Shown: piece after piece, positions 512 through 13,946 of the stretch
Layout of the letters: every line of letters begins with the position of its first letter
Numbering within the stretch: position 1 is the stretch's first letter
Source: Bacillota bacterium
GTDB taxonomy: Bacteria; Bacillota; Desulfitisporia; Desulfitisporales; JAWSUQ01
Length of the DNA: 29,198 bases
Assembly (NCBI GenBank): GCA_033549265.1
Contig: JAWSUQ010000001.1
Location: 1-29,198, forward strand
Direction: 5' to 3'
Notes under the pieces: model-generated
Seen by the model: only the letters and a program-made list of their open reading frames with translations
Told to the model about the DNA's origin: nothing
Databases searched by the model: none
Made by a program: the position numbers and the translations under genes

Positions 512-553
512 AAAAGAGATAACAAAGCATAATTGCTCTGTTATCTCTTTTTT
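512..553 (+). terminator. Intrinsic terminator after ileS
   Basis: AGAGATAACA-a-AGCA/TAAT/TGCT-c-TGTTATCTCT hairpin followed by T run, just after the stop codon. Confidence 0.88.
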
Positions 554-669
554 GGTCATGCCATATTTTAATTGTTTCATTAAGTATAAAAATGGTGTAG
601 AATAAGGTGGAACAATTGTGATTACTATTACGAAAAATGATTTGGGTCAATAGAATGGAGCTGATGATA

Positions 670-2157
670 ATGTTATTAAACTCTATAGTAAAAGAGCTAG
701 ACTTTGTAATAATTCAGGGGAATATAAATAGAGAAGTAAGCTCGATTGCCTATGACTCTAGAGAAGTTATATATAATAGTATTTTTGTGGCAATAACAGG
801 TTTTACAGTTGATGGTCATAATTATATTGAGAAAGCAATTGAAAAGGGTGCAACTACAATAGTTGTAGAAAAGGATATTGATATAGATGAAAATATCACT
901 GTTCTTAAGGTTAAGAGTTCTAGAAAAGCGCTAGCTTTAATATCTGCAAATTATTTTAGCAATCCTACCGAAAAGTTGAACCTAATAGGTATAACTGGAA
1001 CTAATGGGAAGACATCCACCACCTATTTTATTAAATCTATTTTGGATTATGCTAATAAAGCTACGGGTATTATCGGTACAATCGGAACTGTAATCGATAA
1101 CAAGCTAATTAAGACTAAAAATACTACGCCAGAATCTCTAAATCTACAGCAAATCTTCTCTGAAATGGTAGAGGCAGATACAGAAAATTGTATTATGGAA
1201 GTATCATCCCATGCCTTAAGCCTTAGTAGAGTGGCTTACTGTAGCTTTAATACCGGCATATTTACTAATCTTTCTCCGGATCATCTAGAGCTTCATAAAA
1301 CTATGGAAGAATACTTTAATGCCAAAGCGCAATTATTTGAGTTGACTACAGACTACAATATTGTCAATATTGACGATGAATACGGCAAAAAACTAGCGGC
1401 AAGAATCAAAAACTATGATGCAAAATTAGTTACATTTGGCATAGAAGACGCCAGTGCAGATATATATGCAACTAAGATTTCCTGTCAAGCTGATAATACA
1501 ACCTATGTAGCCCATACTCCTAAGGGAAGTGTGAAGATTAAAGTTAAGCTCCCAGGTATTATTAATGTATATAACAGCTTAGCTGCTATTGCATGTGCTT
1601 ATTGTAATAATATTAGTTTACAGGATATAAAAGAAGGCATTAATGGGCTAGAACGCATTAAAGGAAGATTTGAAACAGTATATCAAGATAATGATTATAA
1701 GGTTATAGTGGACTTTGCCCATACTGAAGACGGATTGGAAAAAGCTCTTACTACTATTAAGCCCTTTGCCAAAGGGAGAATTATTTTAGTATTTGGCGTA
1801 TATGCCGCTGCTGGAGAAATGGGCAAGGAAAAACGTAGATCAATGGGTAAGGTTGCGGTTAAATATGCAGATTTTGCTGTAGTAACGTCGGACAACCCTA
1901 AGGACCAAGACCCTAATTTGATTATTAGGGATATAGTAGAGGCCATAGAGGAAGAGGGCGGTAGCTATCAAGCAATAATTGATAGAAGAGAAGCAATCAA
2001 CTTTGCCATTAATCTTAGTAAAAAAGGCGATATTATTCTCATAACAGGTAAAGGCCATGAGACCTCCCAAATAATAGGCAAGGAAGAAATACCCTTTAGT
2101 GAAGCAGAAATTGTAAACGAAATAATGCAGAAGGCTAAAGAATTAAGAATTAGTTAA
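670..2157 (+). CDS. murE: MurE-family UDP-MurNAc-dipeptide:amino acid ligase with atypical specificity pocket
   Basis: DSR, GFTVDGH, P-loop GITGTNGKTST, NTTPES, MEVSSHAL, FTNLSPDHL, DFAHT, SDNPK, GKGHE; start placed at ATG 670 (GGAG at 657-660) rather than 637. Confidence 0.9.
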   Translation: MLLNSIVKELDFVIIQGNINREVSSIAYDSREVIYNSIFVAITGFTVDGHNYIEKAIEKGATTIVVEKDIDIDENITVLKVKSSRKALALISANYFSNPTEKLNLIGITGTNGKTSTTYFIKSILDYANKATGIIGTIGTVIDNKLIKTKNTTPESLNLQQIFSEMVEADTENCIMEVSSHALSLSRVAYCSFNTGIFTNLSPDHLELHKTMEEYFNAKAQLFELTTDYNIVNIDDEYGKKLAARIKNYDAKLVTFGIEDASADIYATKISCQADNTTYVAHTPKGSVKIKVKLPGIINVYNSLAAIACAYCNNISLQDIKEGINGLERIKGRFETVYQDNDYKVIVDFAHTEDGLEKALTTIKPFAKGRIILVFGVYAAAGEMGKEKRRSMGKVAVKYADFAVVTSDNPKDQDPNLIIRDIVEAIEEEGGSYQAIIDRREAINFAINLSKKGDIILITGKGHETSQIIGKEEIPFSEAEIVNEIMQKAKELRIS

Positions 2158-2198
2158 TAATCTAGATTAATCATACACTATCACGAGAGGTGACTTAA

Positions 2199-4037
2199 AT
2201 GTGCGGATTTGTGGGCTTTGCTGACGCTAACTTAGAAATAGATAAGATGAAAACAATTGAAAGCATGATGAACACAATAATTCATAGGGGCCCTGATAGC
2301 GGAGGGGTATATTCAGATGAAAAGGTAACTTTAGGATTTAGACGGCTGATGATTATAGATCTATCGGAAGATGCAAGCCAACCAATGTATAATGAAGACA
2401 AAAGCTGTGTTTTGGTTTTCAATGGGGAAATATACAACTATCAGGAATTAAGAGCAGATTTAATTGCTAAAGGGCATGTTTTTGTTAGTAATAGTGATAG
2501 TGAAGTAATTCTACACGGTTACGAAGAGTATGGCGTGGAACTGCTGCAAAAGGTAAGGGGAATGTTCGCATTTGCTATTTGGGATACAAACAGCGAATCA
2601 ATGCTTTTAGCCAGGGATTTTTTTGGTATAAAACCATTGTACTATTCTCAGAATACAGTAGACAACTCCCTTATCTTTGGCTCAGAAATTAAATCATTTT
2701 TGAAGCAACCAGCCTTTAAAAAAGAGCTAAATAAAAATGCCTTAAGGCCCTATTTAACCTTTCAATATTCAGTACTAGACGAAACCTTTTTCAAAGGTGT
2801 GTATAAATTAAAGCCTGGTCACTATATGCTGTACAAAAAAGGCCAGCTAGAACTTAAGCGCTACTGGGAATCCAGGTTTGATGAAGAGGGTAATAGCTTA
2901 GAGTATTATGTAGAGCAAATTAAACAAACTATGAGGGAATCGGTTAATTATCATAAAATTAGTGATGTCAAAGTAGGCTCATTTTTATCAGGAGGCATAG
3001 ACTCCAGTTATATTACCGCATTACTAATGCCAAATAAGACTTTTTCGGTGGGTTTTCACGACTATGAAGCAATGTTTAACGAAACTAAATTGGCTAAAGA
3101 ATTATCGGATATCTTAAAAATAGAAAATAATAGGTATATTATTAGCGCAGATGATTGCTTTGAAAAGTTGCCAACTATTTTATATCATATGGATGAGCCC
3201 CAATCAAATCCTTCTGCAGTCCCGTTATACTTTTTGGCAGGACTTGCTAGTGAATATGTAACAGTAGTGTTGTCCGGTGAAGGTGCCGATGAAATATTTG
3301 GAGGGTACCCTTGGTATCAAAACTCGAAATTAATGGCAAAATATGAGAAAATTCCTTTTGCGATTCGCCGCCCTATTTCTTTATTATGTCAAAGACTGCC
3401 AAAAAACAAATTCACTGGATTTTTGGAAAAGGGCGGGAAAAGGGTGGAAGAGAAATTTATTGGGGAAGCCAAGGTGTTTGAGGAAAATGATGCTCTCTCC
3501 GTTTTGAAAGATGAATATAAAAAAGGTCCCTCTGTCCAAAGTATTACTAAAAAAGTATACGATGAAGTAAAGGGTGAGGATGACGTTACTAAAATGCAGT
3601 ATCTTGACATAAACTTATGGCTTCCTGGAGATATTCTTTTGAAAGCTGATAAAATGAGTATGGCCCATTCCCTTGAATTAAGAGTCCCGTTCCTAGATAA
3701 AGAAGTAATGTCATTAGCATCCCGGATACCAAGTGAACAGAGAGTTAACAGTATAAATACCAAGTATGCCTTAAGAATTGCGGCAAATGAAACATTGCCA
3801 GATGAGTGGGCAAAAAGACCAAAACTAGGCTTTCCAGTACCTATTAGATATTGGATGCGGGAGCAGAAATACTATGATATGATTAAGGAAATGTTTCAAT
3901 CAGAAATGGCTAAAGAGTTCTTTAATACTGAGGAGCTTGTTAGATATCTAGATGAGCATTATACCAGCAAAAAAAATTATGCAAGGTATATTTGGACAGT
4001 GTATGTTTTTCTTGTATGGTACAAAAAGTTTTTTTAG
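2199..4037 (+). CDS. asnB: Asparagine synthase-like glutamine amidotransferase (AsnB/AsnH family), likely peptidoglycan amidase-forming enzyme
   Basis: N-terminal MCG nucleophile, HRGPD, NGEIYN, SGGIDSS, SGEGADEIFGGY, SLELRVPFLD, KLGFPVP; GAGGTG RBS. Confidence 0.93.
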   Translation: MCGFVGFADANLEIDKMKTIESMMNTIIHRGPDSGGVYSDEKVTLGFRRLMIIDLSEDASQPMYNEDKSCVLVFNGEIYNYQELRADLIAKGHVFVSNSDSEVILHGYEEYGVELLQKVRGMFAFAIWDTNSESMLLARDFFGIKPLYYSQNTVDNSLIFGSEIKSFLKQPAFKKELNKNALRPYLTFQYSVLDETFFKGVYKLKPGHYMLYKKGQLELKRYWESRFDEEGNSLEYYVEQIKQTMRESVNYHKISDVKVGSFLSGGIDSSYITALLMPNKTFSVGFHDYEAMFNETKLAKELSDILKIENNRYIISADDCFEKLPTILYHMDEPQSNPSAVPLYFLAGLASEYVTVVLSGEGADEIFGGYPWYQNSKLMAKYEKIPFAIRRPISLLCQRLPKNKFTGFLEKGGKRVEEKFIGEAKVFEENDALSVLKDEYKKGPSVQSITKKVYDEVKGEDDVTKMQYLDINLWLPGDILLKADKMSMAHSLELRVPFLDKEVMSLASRIPSEQRVNSINTKYALRIAANETLPDEWAKRPKLGFPVPIRYWMREQKYYDMIKEMFQSEMAKEFFNTEELVRYLDEHYTSKKNYARYIWTVYVFLVWYKKFF

Positions 4038-4062
4038 AAACCAATGGAGTTGAAGATATTTC

Positions 4063-5292
4063 ATGAAAAAGTTAGACTTTGTTCCAGTAATACTAGGTAG
4101 CGATGTTAATGCCTACGGCATGGCAAAATCATTTCATCAGCAATATGGTGTAAAAAGCGTGGCTGTTGGTAAAGCACAACTTTTTGCTACCAACTATTCT
4201 AAAATAATAACAGTTGATGTGTGTGATGATTTTGATCATCCCGATGTTTTTGTTCCTAAGCTTATTTCTGTTGCAAAAGAGCTAAAAAAGACCACAGCTA
4301 AACTTGTCCTAATTGCTAGCAGTGACAATTACGTAGAGCTTATCGTCAGAAATAAGGAGGTATTAGCAGAGTATTATGTTACTCCTTTTGTTGATGAAGA
4401 TTTATTGAATTGCTTAATATATAAAGAGAAGTTTTATGAAACCTGTGACAAGCATAATTTAGATTACCCTAAGACTGTTATTTGCACTAAGGAAAATAAA
4501 GATCAACTTCAGTTACCATTTGAATTTCCGGTAGTTGTGAAGCCATCAGATAGCTTGTTATATGCTAACTGTTCCTTTGCTGGCAAAAAAAAGGCTTATG
4601 TTCTACAGGATAAAAAGGGCTTTAAAGAAGTTATAAATAAAATATATTCCACTAGCTATGATAAAAATTTGATTATTCAAGAGTATATTCCAGGCGACGA
4701 TACTGCAATGCGAGTTCTAAACTGTTATTGCGGACAAGATAAAAAAGTAAAAATGATGTGTCTTGGTAGGCCGCTTTTAGAAGATTATACTCCAGTATTA
4801 ATTGGCAACTATACCGCAATTATTAATGAGTATAATGAAGAAATTTATAGTAAGTACAAGGATTTTTTAGAACAGATTGGTTACATTGGCTATGCTAATA
4901 TTGATATGAAATACGATGAACGAGATGGAAAATATAAAGTGTTTGAAATAAATTTGCGGCAAGGAAGAAGCAGCTACTTTGTCACTGGAAGTGGATATAA
5001 CTTAGCTAAATATTTAGTAGAAGATTATGTATACAACGGCGGCTCGTCAGAGTTAGTTTTGGGAAGAAATGAATCTCTTTGGTTAGGAATACCTAAGGGG
5101 GTATTGCTCAAATACCTTGAAGATGAAGAGCTTAAAGCTTACGTGCAAAAACTTATAAAACAAAAGAAATACTGCTATACCTTATACTACAATAAGGATT
5201 TTAACCTCATAAGATATCTAAAAAATAGCTTGTATTATCAAGCCTATCACAAAAGATATGCCCAATACTTTAAAAACAGAGATATTGACTAA
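4063..5292 (+). CDS. asl: ATP-grasp D-aspartate ligase (Asl/YxbA family)
   Basis: PVILGSDVNAYGMAKSF, FPVVVKP, IIQEYIPGDDTAMRVLNCY, MMCLGRPLLED, DMKYDERDG, FEINLRQGRSSYF closely match my recall of Enterococcus faecium Aslfm. Confidence 0.88.
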   Translation: MKKLDFVPVILGSDVNAYGMAKSFHQQYGVKSVAVGKAQLFATNYSKIITVDVCDDFDHPDVFVPKLISVAKELKKTTAKLVLIASSDNYVELIVRNKEVLAEYYVTPFVDEDLLNCLIYKEKFYETCDKHNLDYPKTVICTKENKDQLQLPFEFPVVVKPSDSLLYANCSFAGKKKAYVLQDKKGFKEVINKIYSTSYDKNLIIQEYIPGDDTAMRVLNCYCGQDKKVKMMCLGRPLLEDYTPVLIGNYTAIINEYNEEIYSKYKDFLEQIGYIGYANIDMKYDERDGKYKVFEINLRQGRSSYFVTGSGYNLAKYLVEDYVYNGGSSELVLGRNESLWLGIPKGVLLKYLEDEELKAYVQKLIKQKKYCYTLYYNKDFNLIRYLKNSLYYQAYHKRYAQYFKNRDID

Positions 5293-5356
5293 TTTTCTTT
5301 CTTTAGCTAAACAGCAACTGACAAAAGTTGACTTAAGTTTCGGAGGGGGGATTATC

Positions 5357-6439
5357 GTGCCACTTTTAGACAAGACAAATATTGAAAAAGTAGAAAAGTA
5401 TAATAATTTCGTGAGAAAATCAGAATTTGCATCTGCAACCCAAGATATCAATTGGTCATTAGTTAAGAAAGATTGGGATAATGAACAGGTCTTTATTGAA
5501 CAAGATGGTAAAATTGTTGCAGCTATGTCACTGCTAATAAAAAGAGTTTTGGGCAACTATGCTATGATATATGTTCCGAGAGGTCCTGTATGTGACATTT
5601 ACAATAAAGATTTAGTGAATGAGCTGGTCCTAGAGGTGCAGCCAGTGGCCCATAAGTATAATGCCTTTATGCTGAGGTTTGATCCAGAGGTAAATTATGA
5701 TAAAAGCCTTGGCGAAATGTATGGGGAATTAGGTTTTATAGTAAGAAACCTGGGACTTAGCAAGGACGACTTTATCCAGCCAAGATATAATATGGTTTTA
5801 GATATAGAAAATTTAGATGAAGATGGGGTCTTGAAAAAGTTTAGCAAGAAAACGCGGTATAACATTGGTTTGGCATCCCGCAAGGGCGTTATTGTTAATT
5901 ATTATAATAGTGATGAGGCATTAGAAATATTTTATGAGTTGCATGAAATTATGGGGAAAAGAAATAAGATAGCCATTAGGCCCCTTCAGTATTTTAAAGA
6001 TATGAGGGTTGCCTTTGGCCAGCAATTGAGAATATATATAACAGAGCATGAGGGAGACTATTTATCTGCGGCAATAGCTATTAGCTATGGAAAAAAAGTT
6101 TGGTATATTTACGGTGCCAGCTCCAACGAAAAAAGAAATTTTATGCCTAACTATATTATGCAATGGGAAATGATTAAGTGGGCTTTGGAACAAGGCGCCA
6201 CTAAATATGATTTTGGCGGGGTTTTTGAGCTGAACCATAGCGACGGTTTGTATAAATTTAAAGAGGGATTTTGTTACACTGACGGTGCTACAGAGCTGAT
6301 TGGAGAATTTGACAAGGTATACAAACCCTTAGTTTATTACTCTTTCACCAAATTAGTACCGAAAGTCCAAAAATTGAGGAAGAGCTTAAATACAGTAAAA
6401 TGCTTAGGTAGAGGAGGAAAGAATGAGAAGGATAGTTAG
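5357..6439 (+). CDS. femX: FemABX-family aminoacyl-tRNA-dependent peptidoglycan bridge transferase (short FemX type, no coiled coil)
   Basis: TQDINW..VK..W, IVAAMSLL, YVPRGPV, LRFDPEV, IQPRYNMVLD, WYIYGASS, YDFGG, LYKFKEGF, IGEFD; start moved to GTG 5357 behind GGAGGGGGG RBS, giving MPLL... like the N-terminus of Weissella FemX as recalled. Confidence 0.9.
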   Translation: MPLLDKTNIEKVEKYNNFVRKSEFASATQDINWSLVKKDWDNEQVFIEQDGKIVAAMSLLIKRVLGNYAMIYVPRGPVCDIYNKDLVNELVLEVQPVAHKYNAFMLRFDPEVNYDKSLGEMYGELGFIVRNLGLSKDDFIQPRYNMVLDIENLDEDGVLKKFSKKTRYNIGLASRKGVIVNYYNSDEALEIFYELHEIMGKRNKIAIRPLQYFKDMRVAFGQQLRIYITEHEGDYLSAAIAISYGKKVWYIYGASSNEKRNFMPNYIMQWEMIKWALEQGATKYDFGGVFELNHSDGLYKFKEGFCYTDGATELIGEFDKVYKPLVYYSFTKLVPKVQKLRKSLNTVKCLGRGGKNEKDS

Positions 6440-7483
6440 ATTTGTTTTTTTTTGCTCATAATCATCCTTCTATTTATGGGAGGTAGGACTGTTACTGATG
6501 TGCTTTTGATGACAAAGCAAGGTGTTATCACTGTTGTTAGTATTGATGCTATTAGCCAGTTGCCTATCAAAAATGTAGAATATCTAATTATTGATTATGA
6601 CACTCATGAGCTGGTGGAAAAGCTGAGCACTAATGAAAATGGCAGTGCAACCTCAAGCTTGCTGGACTATGGAAAAACATATGTCATCAGGCAACATAGG
6701 GTGAAGCCACCTTATGATTATTCAAAAGAAGTTGAACAATTACTTACAATCGATAATGAGATTCACCATTTCATAGCAGAACATAGCTGGCTAGACTATA
6801 TTAAAGAAGTTAGTCGTACTGCAGATGGGGAACTTATTATTAGAGAAGTATATATACCGGTCCCAACTATATTGCAAAAGCCGGAACTGCCAAACGGTTG
6901 TGAGATTACTTCCTTAACAGCTGTATTAAATTATTATGGCTACAGTGTCACAAAAACTGAGATGTCAGATGACTTTTTGCCAAAGCAACCTTTTGTTTAT
7001 CGAGATGGTAAATTATATGGTGCTGACCCTTATTTGGCATACTCTGGCAATCCAAGAAATAGCTATGGCACTGGTTCAGCAAATTACGGCGGGTGGTTTA
7101 CTTATCCTCCTCCAGTAATTGAAGCTGCTAAAAAGTACATTATGAGCAGCGAAGGTGTACATAGTGCTGTAGATATATCTGGAAGTGACCCGGAAGATAT
7201 TATAGAGCTATTAAATCAGGGTATTCCTGTGGTGACTTGGATGACATTAGACTTGGATGAGCCAAGATTTTTGGGCTACTCATGGTATTTACATGATAGT
7301 GAAATAATATTTAATCCACCGGTGAATCTTCATGCTACAGTTATAAATGGGTATGTGGATGATAGATTGCATGTAATGGATCCATTAAAGGGACAAGTTA
7401 TTTATGATGCCAATACATTTTTTAATAGCTATGATGCCTTGGGAAGTCATGCTATGATAGTTGTCAATCAAATACATGATTAA
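6423..7483 (+). CDS. Membrane-anchored C39-like (Peptidase_C39_2) cysteine peptidase with SpaA/prealbumin-like Ig domain; reading frame broken at T9 tract 6445-6453
   Basis: QKPELPNGCEITS (Gln, Cys), NLHATV (His), VMDP (Asp); TNENG...L.YG.TY Ig-like pattern; AGAGGAGG RBS before ATG 6423 whose frame stops at TAA 6459-6461, while the long ORF continues from 6452. Confidence 0.78.
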
Positions 7484-7495
7484 GAAGGTGCAGCA

Positions 7496-8221
7496 ATGGA
7501 ACACAAACTATTAGGAATTTTAGGTGGAATGGGACCTAAGGCTACCTCAGTTTTTTTTGATAAAATTATAGAATATACAATTTCTAAGCGGGATCAGGAT
7601 CATATTGATATTCTAATCCTTAATCATGCTACATTGCCTGATAGGACTAGTACTATTCTAGAGCATAGAGAAGAACAATTTTTAGAATTAATTGAGAAGG
7701 ATATTAGGCTTTTTGAGCTGGCAGGAGTCTCGAATATTGCTATACCTTGCAATACTACACATTTTTTTCACAGCAAGATGCAGGAAATGACAGAAATAAA
7801 TATAATTAATATGGTAAATGAAACAATTAAAGAGATATACGCGAAATATGGCGAGAGTAGTAAAATTGGCATCTTGGCAACTAATGGTACCATCAACAGT
7901 GGAGTATATAGTGAGGAGTGCAAAAAATACAATCTGGAGTTACATGTTCCGGAAGAAGCGATGCAAGAAAAAGTTATGAAAATAATTTATGAGGATGTAA
8001 AAGGCGATTTAGATGCTGACCCTACTGAGCTAGAAGCAATCATAAATGAACTTGTTTATAAAGAAAATTGTGTTTGTGTTATATTAGCATGTACTGAATT
8101 ATCTTGTATCCAAATAAGCTATAAAACAAAAAAATATTGTATCGATGCCATGGAGGTACTAATCAAGAAATCTATAATATTATCTGGCAAGAAGTATGGA
8201 AAAGAACTAGAGTCTAGATAA
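7496..8221 (+). CDS. racD: Aspartate racemase (cofactor-independent Asp/Glu racemase family)
   Basis: LGILGGMGPKAT, DQDHI, both catalytic cysteines in IPCNTTH and LACTELS, GILATNGT. Confidence 0.9.
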   Translation: MEHKLLGILGGMGPKATSVFFDKIIEYTISKRDQDHIDILILNHATLPDRTSTILEHREEQFLELIEKDIRLFELAGVSNIAIPCNTTHFFHSKMQEMTEINIINMVNETIKEIYAKYGESSKIGILATNGTINSGVYSEECKKYNLELHVPEEAMQEKVMKIIYEDVKGDLDADPTELEAIINELVYKENCVCVILACTELSCIQISYKTKKYCIDAMEVLIKKSIILSGKKYGKELESR

Positions 8222-8262
8222 GGAGCAGGCAGACTAAGCACATACTTAAGGGGGATGTATGT

Positions 8263-8475
8263 ATGACAATAAAGACTAACAAGTTCGAGGAATTTCTATC
8301 AGAATCCTTTTTTGATGGTTTAAAGCATAGAGAACTAAGACTATCTGATGAAGAAGTGAAATATATTCAAAGAGAATATCCAAAATCAATATTAAAGAGA
8401 ATACAAACAAACCAATATTTAGATGGTAAAACTTGGTATAATGTTAAATTAATTAGTGATAAACCTAATCTGTAA
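8263..8475 (+). CDS. Hypothetical 70-aa protein
   Basis: AAGGGGGA RBS, co-oriented and tightly spaced within the operon; no motif recognised. Confidence 0.7.
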   Translation: MTIKTNKFEEFLSESFFDGLKHRELRLSDEEVKYIQREYPKSILKRIQTNQYLDGKTWYNVKLISDKPNL

Positions 8476-8506
8476 TACTAATTAGCTTCAGTGGTGGTGG
8501 AACCTA

Positions 8507-9265
8507 ATGAGAAAAAATGACCGCAAAAAAAACAGAGAAGAGAATAAAGGGGAATCTGGTTGGCTGTTGACTTATGCTGATATGATTACCTTAGTTTTAA
8601 CGTTCTTTATCCTTCTTTATACAATGTCCACAATAGATGTTATAAAATTTTCCCAAGTAGTTGCTTCTGTAAAAGGTTCTTTAGGAGTGATAGATGGCGG
8701 AAGAACAATCGAGTCAGAGCCCTTAAATGATATGGGTGAGATGGAAGACGAAATTTTGCAGATGTTAAAGGATTGGGAAGAGGAAGAAGATACTATTAGA
8801 GATATAGTTATTAGGCTAGAAGCATTACTAGAAGTTGAACAAATTCAGGATGCTGTCCGTATTCTAGTAGATGAAAGGGGCATTAATATTAGGTTCTTGG
8901 ATCATGTGCTATTTGATAGAGGTAGGGCAGAGCTGAAGCCCGAAGCAAAACCGCTACTAGATGAAGTGTACAATATTATCAGTGAGCTTGACAATCAAAT
9001 TAGAGTAGAGGGTTATACATGCGACTTGCCAAGTAATACGGTGGAATTTCCTACAAATTGGGAACTATCAACTAGAAGAGCGACTAATGTTTTAAGATAT
9101 TTACATGAAAAAGGAGTAGATGGTGAACGGCTCTCAGCGGTGGGTTATGGTGAGTATCGCCCATTAGTTCCTAATACTAATGAAGCTCAACGGCGCCAAA
9201 ATCGAAGAGCCGATATAATTATTTTAAGGGAAAATTATATGGAAGATTTGGATGATAGAAATTAA
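8507..9265 (+). CDS. motB: MotB/MotS-family stator protein with OmpA-like domain, no adjacent motA
   Basis: WLLTYADMITLVLTFFILLY transmembrane helix with conserved Asp, DERG, LFDRGRAEL, TNWELSTRRA, GYGEYRP, NRRADI. Confidence 0.92.
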   Translation: MRKNDRKKNREENKGESGWLLTYADMITLVLTFFILLYTMSTIDVIKFSQVVASVKGSLGVIDGGRTIESEPLNDMGEMEDEILQMLKDWEEEEDTIRDIVIRLEALLEVEQIQDAVRILVDERGINIRFLDHVLFDRGRAELKPEAKPLLDEVYNIISELDNQIRVEGYTCDLPSNTVEFPTNWELSTRRATNVLRYLHEKGVDGERLSAVGYGEYRPLVPNTNEAQRRQNRRADIIILRENYMEDLDDRN

Positions 9266-9294
9266 ACAGAGCGATAGGCTCTGTTTTTGTTTTT
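9264..9294 (+). terminator. Intrinsic terminator after motB
   Basis: AAACAGAGC-gatag-GCTCTGTTT followed by TTGTTTTT. Confidence 0.85.
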
Positions 9295-9363
9295 GGTTTT
9301 ATAGCTTTATTCCTAAAATAATTATTTTTGAGCATATTAAATAATAGTTTTCAATATTTGCAT

Positions 9364-13832: not shown

Positions 13833-13854
13833 GTAACAAGCAAACTGAATATTT

Positions 13855-13941
13855 GCCTTTAAAGTAGTCCCGTGAGGCTAGTAAGGGTTGATATTTTACA
13901 GGTGAAATCTACCTGCTTACTCACGGTAAGCAGGTTTTTTT
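13855..13941 (+). promoter_or_regulatory. PyrR attenuator 1 (binding loop, antiterminator, terminator)
   Basis: CCTTTAA...AGTCCCGTGAGGCT (13866-13879) matches ARUCCNGNGAGGYU; terminator ACCTGCTTAC-tcacg-GTAAGCAGGT-T run at 13911-13941; AGTAAG 13880-13885 can pair with CTTACT 13916-13921. Confidence 0.92.
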
Positions 13942-13946
13942 AATGA

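Follow-up and report, generated by a model that had tools for sequence, protein, structure and literature searches.

A MurE variant with a rebuilt substrate pocket, encoded beside putative D-aspartate bridge genes, may add lysine or ornithine to peptidoglycan

The murE2 gene and its product

We analyzed a 29,198-nucleotide stretch of DNA from a Bacillota bacterium of the order Desulfitisporales (positions 1 to 29,198 of contig JAWSUQ010000001.1, assembly GCA_033549265.1; hereafter, the window), focusing on murE2, a gene for a homolog of the peptidoglycan ligase MurE. MurE sets the third residue of the peptidoglycan stem peptide, and this residue fixes the cross-link chemistry, the wall chemotype, recognition by the host immune receptors NOD1 and PGRPs (diaminopimelic acid (DAP) versus Lys type) and sensitivity to many lytic enzymes. 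The likely start of murE2 is the ATG at position 670, with a ribosome-binding site, GGAG, 9 nucleotides upstream. The gene and its key motifs are:

670-2157, forward strand: murE2, a MurE-like coding sequence of 495 amino acids (P0001), within the open reading frame (ORF) 637-2157
997-1014, forward strand: P-loop GTNGKT, G110-T115 of the product, invariant in the canonical and variant groups
1279-1296, forward strand: DHLELH, D204-H209 of the product (canonical DHLD(Y/F)H; D212 replaced by E)
1792-1839, forward strand: rebuilt loop FGVYAAAGEMGKEKRR, F375-R390 of the product, from HMMER and MAFFT alignments
1891-1902, forward strand: DNPK, D408-K411 of the product (canonical DNPR; R416 replaced by K)
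2050-2061, forward strand: KGHE, K461-E464 of the product, invariant in both groups

The murE2 product contains the Pfam domains Mur_ligase (PF01225), Mur_ligase_M (PF08245) and Mur_ligase_C (PF02875) and scores 498.2 bits against the MurE model TIGR01085, above the cut-off of 257.3 bits. Its AlphaFold2 model (predicted local distance difference test score (pLDDT) 91.5; predicted template modeling score (pTM) 0.89) matches MurE structures in Foldseek with template modeling (TM) scores of 0.88-0.91 (0.90-0.91 for 1E8C and 4C12), compared with 0.58-0.69 for MurF and about 0.56-0.62 for MurC, and resembles the closed, product-bound MurE structures (TM about 0.9). The rebuilt loop is modeled at a pLDDT of about 87-90, with a helix starting from E383. 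A set of 81 alignment columns shows at least 97% identity over 186 variant and 39 canonical sequences; the set takes in the P-loop, E182, D209/H210, H214, the carbamylated K224, H359, K393/R394, D413-N414-P415 and G464-E468. Judging from the model and the alignment, the murE2 product is predicted to have a full MurE fold with the catalytic set intact.

The pocket motifs

At the position of the rebuilt loop, DAP-type MurEs read FGCGGDRDxxKRP. HMMER alignments to solved MurEs (plant MurE-like, M. tuberculosis, T. maritima and E. coli) place a 3-residue insertion directly after FG of the murE2 loop, Met384 opposite the Arg of GDR (R389 in the literature) and Lys411 opposite R416. The same insertion and the same placement of Met384 and Lys411 were recovered in a MAFFT alignment with E. 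coli K-12 MurE and 39 canonical MurEs, in which genomic numbering equals literature numbering + 1. The loop therefore has Tyr for Gly386, a 3-residue insert, no Arg389 and Gly for Asp390, with K393/R394 retained, and the span 1792-1902 runs exactly from Phe375 of FGVYAAAGEMGKEKRR through Lys411 of DNPK. Around DHLELH, the equivalents of D209, H210 and H214 are retained. The original prediction, made from the window sequence, had described a loop that is three residues longer and lacks the Arg, DNPK in place of DNPR (nucleotides 1891-1902) and DHLELH in place of DHLDYH (nucleotides 1279-1296), and all three readings hold, with Lys in 98% of the subfamily described below and Glu fixed in 186 of 186 sequences. 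It had also allowed that one residue of the KRR stretch takes over the role of Arg389. Because K393/R394 are conserved in canonical and variant groups alike, they do not replace R389, and the extra Arg390 of the window protein is not conserved across the variant subfamily.

Arg389 was reportedly assigned to the distal carboxylate of meso-DAP in the E. coli MurE structure. In E. coli-type MurE, N414 and R416 bind the D-centre carboxylate of meso-DAP, and D413 and E468 bind the distal amine (PMC3829189); E464 of the murE2 product is the equivalent of E468. Thus, at the two arginines characteristic of meso-DAP-adding enzymes (EC 6.3.2.13), the window protein has Met, within a loop longer by three residues, for Arg389 of GGDRD, and the subfamily has Lys (98%) for Arg416 of DNPR, which is Arg in 100% of canonical MurEs. 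Conversely, D408 and E464 are present as epsilon-amine ligands and K411 is not Arg, as in Lys-type pockets, a functional resemblance rather than family membership. By alignment, the murE2 pocket keeps the distal-amine ligands (D413, E468) and loses the carboxylate arginines.

Comparison with characterized MurEs

The meso-DAP MurEs of E. coli (1E8C) and M. tuberculosis (2WTZ/2XJA) share the three-domain fold with the murE2 product (TM 0.89-0.90; about 31-34% identity) together with the P-loop, the carbamylated Lys, D209/H210, K393/R394, D413, N414 and E468. The murE2 product differs from them in R416 replaced by K, the loss of R389, G386 replaced by Y with the insert, D390 replaced by G and D212 replaced by E; furthermore, the genome encodes a true DAP-type copy elsewhere, and murE2 is not part of the dcw cluster.

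The best structural match of the murE2 model is the L-Lys MurE of S. aureus (4C12/4C13; EC 6.3.2.7; TM 0.91), which likewise has a residue other than Arg at the end of its DNPx motif and in which the epsilon-amine Asp/Glu are present. Overexpression of the S. aureus enzyme in E. coli is reported to lead to lysis (PMC3829189). The S. aureus enzyme belongs to another lineage, and its motif is DNPA, in contrast to DNPK of the murE2 product (S. aureus residues were taken from PMC3829189, not from an alignment made here). Because the variant arose inside the clostridial DAP-type MurEs, Lys specificity shared with the S. aureus type would be convergent. The best sequence match of the C-terminal domain is the L-/D-Lys MurE of Thermotoga maritima (4BUB; 98.6 bits), which also lacks Arg at the R389 position, where it has Ser. 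Unlike the murE2 product, 4BUB retains Arg in its DDPR motif and has no loop insertion; it has an Arg two residues beyond the R389 position, which is not conserved in the variant subfamily. The assumption in the original prediction that Lys-adding enzymes typically keep the first Arg is therefore not general, given the Ser in 4BUB.

A conserved subfamily of MurE

The altered motifs are not private to the window. Among 186 subfamily sequences, G386 is replaced by Y, the 3-residue insert is present, D390 is replaced by G and D212 by E in 100%, and R416 is replaced by K in 98%, so that these changes are not due to chance or sequencing error; the R389 position, 100% Arg in canonical MurEs, is unconserved. 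In total, ten positions are fixed differently between the variant and canonical groups, most of them in the C-terminal domain (including Y357 to F, P361 to E, G386 to Y with the insert, D390 to G and R416 to K) and two in the DHLDYH region (Gln/Arg208 to Pro and D212 to E). The close homologs of murE2 (46-71% identity) all have FGVYA..G..G..KR, DNPK and DHLELH, and among the copies from named species, DNPK is found in 77 of 78 and DHLELH in 78 of 78; a few subfamily members retain DNPR.

A scan with two variant-specific peptides, with one genome per species, identified the variant in genomes of 366 species. The best 80 of these 366 loci, on which all species-context counts are based, come from Paenibacillus, Bacillus/Neobacillus, Virgibacillus, Lentibacillus, Tenuibacillus, Paucisalibacillus, Chengkuizengella, Anaerovirgula, Natronincola and Fusibacter. 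Within the window's own phylum, a sample of 400 genomes had the variant in only one (G367). The maximum-likelihood tree unites the variant sequences in a single clade (SH-aLRT 99) that falls within the clostridial canonical MurEs, and the copies from Bacilli cluster with clostridial copies, not with the MurEs of their own hosts, which indicates horizontal spread.

NCBIfam has no model specific to the subfamily. The DAP-ligase model NF001126 takes it in, with scores of 550-560 bits for the variant versus about 640 bits for canonical MurEs, and every source-named variant among the matches listed is labeled DAP ligase. A literature search on the variant subfamily found no paper. The suspicion that murE2 represents a possibly uncharacterized MurE subtype is thus borne out by a monophyletic clade with its own fixed motifs, by the lack of an NCBIfam model and by the empty literature search.

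On the margin of this distribution, a contig titled Candidatus Udaeobacter sp., a verrucomicrobial metagenome-assembled genome, holds a Paenibacillus-like locus of murE2, ATP-grasp and racemase genes, with a MurE2 segment 75% identical to that of the window; its presence there is probably a binning error.

The acquired cassette at ileS

murE2 is the first gene of a cassette of about 8.7 kb (block 560-9300). The boundaries of the cassette and its genes other than murE2 are:

512-551, forward strand: hairpin with a T-run after ileS, the upstream cassette boundary
2199-4037, forward strand: AsnB-type glutamine amidotransferase (Pfam GATase_7, Asn_synthase; TIGR01536, 543 bits)
4063-5292, forward strand: ATP-grasp ligase, candidate D-Asp ligase (Pfam ATP-grasp_3)
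5258-6439, forward strand: FemX-like aminoacyl transferase (Pfam FemAB)
6452-7483, forward strand: SpaA-like protein with a C39_2 papain-like peptidase
7496-8221, forward strand: Asp/Glu-family racemase (TIGR00035, 184.6 bits against a cut-off of 93)
8263-8475, forward strand: conserved 70-amino-acid ORF with no assigned function (tblastn)
8507-9265, forward strand: orphan MotB-like protein with an OmpA domain, the last cassette gene
9264-9286: terminator closing the cassette

For the FemX-like protein, the best NCBIfam model is UDP-MurNAc-pentapeptide-lysine N6-alanyltransferase, with 282 bits, below the cut-off of 500. In two close relatives, of the same family and the same order, ileS is followed within about 60-120 bp by ACT and DUF711 genes; in the window, these genes lie 3' of the cassette and are followed by ylyA, lspA, rluD and pyrR. 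None of the cassette genes, including the gene for the MotB-like protein, is present at the ileS site of the same-family and same-order relatives, and the genes flanking the cassette are syntenic with, and 64-89% identical to, those of a same-family relative. Because the ileS site of the relatives is empty, and the block is also lower in GC (35.1% versus 39.5% for the rest of the window), the cassette is an insertion of about 8.7 kb, horizontally acquired besides the host's own DAP-type MurE. In the window and in 7 diverse loci, the region 5' of murE2 gave no Rfam match to a riboswitch or T-box, and no sequencing runs holding the cassette were listed.

The cassette encodes together the three enzyme classes expected of a D-Asp cross-bridge module, namely a racemase, an ATP-grasp ligase and an AsnH-type amidotransferase. 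The D-Asp bridge of Enterococcus faecium and Lactococcus lactis is reportedly made by an Asp racemase, an ATP-grasp D-Asp ligase and an AsnH amidotransferase, and the same three classes adjoin murE2. The difference is that in E. faecium and L. lactis, a housekeeping Lys MurE is encoded elsewhere, whereas here the bridge genes move together with a MurE of their own and often enter DAP-type hosts.

The murE2 neighborhood across species

Within 10 kb of murE2, an Asp-type racemase gene was found in 75 of the 80 loci, an ATP-grasp ligase gene in 64, an AsnB-type amidotransferase gene in 45, a C39_2 peptidase gene in 35 and a FemX-like gene in 8. Homologs of the 70-amino-acid ORF were detected in at least 21 of the 80 loci (tblastn, 39-53% identity), usually right after the racemase gene, and this ORF is probably a further member of the cassette; the one homolog scanned against Pfam (108 amino acids, from Neobacillus) gave weak sub-threshold matches only.

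The ATP-grasp ligases are of two types that are 28% identical. The window type (51-55% identical) is always paired with a FemX-like gene, in 8 of the 80 loci, belonging to the Fusibacter clade and a few Paenibacillus species, and the gene order of the window is common to 3 Fusibacter-clade loci. In most loci, a Ddl-like ATP-grasp gene, of a type absent from the window, lies directly 5' of murE2, and its product matches the Pfam domain of the D-Ala-D-Ala ligase C-terminus. This arrangement raises the possibility of an unusual MurE substrate, such as pre-formed N-epsilon-(D-aspartyl)-L-lysine made by the adjacent Ddl-like ligase (compare MurF with D-Ala-D-Ala), or LL-DAP, D-Lys, lanthionine or a diamine. 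A specificity loop extended by three residues with an invariant new Tyr would suit such a substrate, and Lys411 could pair with the free carboxylate of the branch. However, with D413 and E468 conserved, a free amine is a better fit than an acylated one. In addition, the nucleotide precursor is the substrate of the known D-Asp ligase, and we know of no precedent for a MurE that takes a dipeptide. We consider an unusual substrate quite unlikely.

Two leads on the substrate were rejected. A lysine riboswitch precedes an amino-acid ABC transporter gene about 2 kb 3' of the cassette in three Neobacillus genomes (L113:15433-15614, L115 and L120); because it is lineage-specific, being confined to 3 close relatives, and controls the transporter, it is not evidence on the substrate. 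The variant was also considered as the source of the A4beta (L-Orn) chemotype of Ornithinibacillus, but no Ornithinibacillus was present among the 120 best matches to the variant copy of Paucisalibacillus globulus, and the subfamily does not account for that chemotype.

MurE paralogs and genomes with the variant alone

A search of the window's own assembly identified three MurE-like genes. On another contig (C47), a canonical murE lies between a penicillin-binding protein (PBP) gene and murF; its product is a textbook DAP-type MurE with the motifs FGCGGDRDITKRP, DNPR and DHLDYH, is 40% identical to the window protein and groups in the tree with the MurE of a same-order relative. The third gene is:

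277-1809 of L003 (contig C258), reverse strand: MurE-like paralog of 510 amino acids, with a divergent C-terminal domain that lacks the DNPx motif

This paralog has good N-terminal and central domains and adjoins a gene for a 425-amino-acid protein; comparable third copies, with TIGR01085 scores of 298-361 bits, were found in Proteiniborus, Virgibacillus necropolis, Anaerovirgula and Natronincola.

As the assembly is a fragmented bin (499 contigs, 3% contamination, 93.5% completeness), murE2 might be a redundant or decaying duplicate, or a contaminant, with no distinct function in this host. However, murE2 has an uninterrupted reading frame with every catalytic residue retained, and the flanks of the cassette match those of a same-family relative, as described above. 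In GC content and tetranucleotide profile, the window contig and C47 are both typical of the bin, the window contig having the second most typical tetranucleotide profile among 246 contigs; given this and the grouping of the C47 MurE with that of the same-order relative, contamination is unlikely. Moreover, Fusibacter bizertensis, a complete Fusibacter chromosome, Clostridia OKU2 and G367 have no MurE other than a member of the subfamily, which must therefore be a working MurE in these four genomes. A murE2 with no function of its own is thus highly improbable.

The variant coexists with at least one other MurE-family gene in P. castaneae, V. necropolis, Proteiniborus, Anaerovirgula, Natronincola, P. 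globulus and Chengkuizengella, and the other copy has the canonical GGDRD and DNPR motifs in the three checked (P. castaneae, V. necropolis and Proteiniborus). According to classical work, Lysinibacillus (Bacillus) sphaericus is said to have both a Lys-adding activity for the vegetative wall and a DAP-adding activity for the spore cortex, that is, two MurE activities in one Firmicute, as in the two-copy variant hosts; unlike in those hosts, no Lysinibacillus sequence was among the variant matches listed. Spo0A and SpoIVA were not found in the three sole-variant genomes searched (both Fusibacter genomes and G367). The window genome has a true Spo0A (397 bits), with SpoIVA not found in this 93.5% complete assembly, and SpoIVA is present in P. 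castaneae. Both two-copy genomes tested, those of the window and P. castaneae, thus have a sporulation marker, a sample too small for a rule. By analogy, sole-variant genomes that lack sporulation markers fit the L. sphaericus picture of a DAP enzyme that is retained by spore formers to build their cortex.

The DAP pathway was dropped as a clue to the substrate in sole-variant genomes. lysA is present in those tested (G367 and both Fusibacter genomes), and G367 has dapA but no DapF match; because these genomes can make both meso-DAP and Lys, the pathway genes do not discriminate. A literature search found no published peptidoglycan data for Fusibacter.

The likely substrate and the proposed pathway

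Since the arginines for the distal carboxylate are lost and the ammonium ligands are kept, the most likely substrate is a diamino acid without a distal carboxylate. Dicarboxylic amino-acid bridges on meso-DAP (A4gamma) have been reported only in Dermabacteraceae (PMC4062624), so a D-Asp bridge module in Firmicutes implies Lys or Orn. Taking pocket and gene context together, murE2 probably encodes an active Lys- or Orn-adding MurE that feeds a D-Asp bridge pathway. Addition of L-Lys has, in our estimate, a little less than an even chance, whereas L-Orn is, taken singly, an unlikely substrate. The earlier expectation that the substrate is not meso-DAP is favored by the pocket changes, the separate canonical DAP-type MurE and the tight linkage with D-Asp-bridge genes. 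The further suggestion that it may not be ordinary L-Lys is disfavored, given that the distal-amine ligands are intact and that the neighboring genes point to L-Lys or L-Orn with a D-Asp-containing bridge.

Our inference on the substrate and on the sequence of bridge-building steps is as follows. MurE2 would add L-Lys or L-Orn, the free side-chain amine of which would be the bridge acceptor. The racemase would make D-Asp, the ATP-grasp ligase would attach it to the side-chain amine of Lys or Orn, and the AsnB-type enzyme would amidate the attached D-Asp. In the window cassette, the FemX-like enzyme would add one L-amino acid.

Several observations weigh against a Lys- or Orn-adding enzyme. The murE2 product scores 354.2 bits with the Lys-ligase model NF010628, below the cut-off of 536, and the characterized Lys enzymes differ from it, with DNPA in S. 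aureus and DDPR in Thermotoga. The positive charge of Lys411 at the R416 site could still pair with a carboxylate, and membership of the racemase in its family does not prove that D-Asp is made. Furthermore, most of the named hosts (Paenibacillus, Virgibacillus, Neobacillus) are described as meso-DAP organisms, so that the product would need to be a minor one, made under some conditions only or missed so far.

Alternatively, the variant might still add meso-DAP, with Lys411 in place of Arg416, a neutral or regulatory loop and a cassette that decorates DAP stems through an A4gamma-like DAP-D-Asp bridge or amidated DAP. In addition to the retained charge at position 416 and the few members with DNPR, the intact D413, N414 and E468, the reported meso-DAP chemotypes of the hosts and the presence of lysA, and hence meso-DAP, in all sole-variant genomes tested are consistent with this alternative, and AsnB-family enzymes amidate meso-DAP in other Firmicutes. 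However, it leaves unexplained the second, canonical DAP ligase of most hosts tested and the fixed differences at five pocket positions in about 190 sequences, and it has to reckon with the restriction of A4gamma to Dermabacteraceae. Besides, meso-DAP assignments of hosts can rest on whole-cell hydrolysates, as in the description of O. massiliensis (PMC4062624). Continued addition of meso-DAP is therefore, in our view, unlikely.

If instead the enzyme adds Lys or Orn, the DAP-ligase labels on this subfamily, present in hundreds of species, are wrong, and genome-based prediction of wall type would need a new rule, the FGVYA loop plus DNPK. According to the tree, such a switch would have arisen separately from the S. 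aureus-type Lys ligases and, if true, would give structure-function studies another natural example of how MurE selectivity is achieved. Given that MurE2 travels with bridge genes and coexists with a DAP-type MurE, some Firmicutes may make two wall chemistries. Tentatively, and with some doubt, we suggest that the locus could be a portable wall-chemotype cassette, with the MurE variant as the entry enzyme, that has spread between Clostridia and Bacilli. DAP-type Firmicutes might use it to build a second stem with Lys or Orn and a D-Asp bridge, alongside or instead of the native one, conditionally and not only for sporulation, and in Fusibacter-like lineages it might have replaced the ancestral DAP-type MurE. 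Were this so, many species described as meso-DAP would have an unrecognized second wall chemistry.

Other observations

Another MurE variant, with FGCVGERDxTKR, TTDNCR (Cys where DNPR has Pro) and EHLDFH, occurs in three genomes of the same phylum (G059, G098 and G339); it shares 47-49% identity with the window protein and falls in a separate clade. Downstream of the cassette, a PyrR binding site (13852-13944; Rfam RF00515, 55.6 bits) lies, as expected, upstream of pyrR and the pyr operon.

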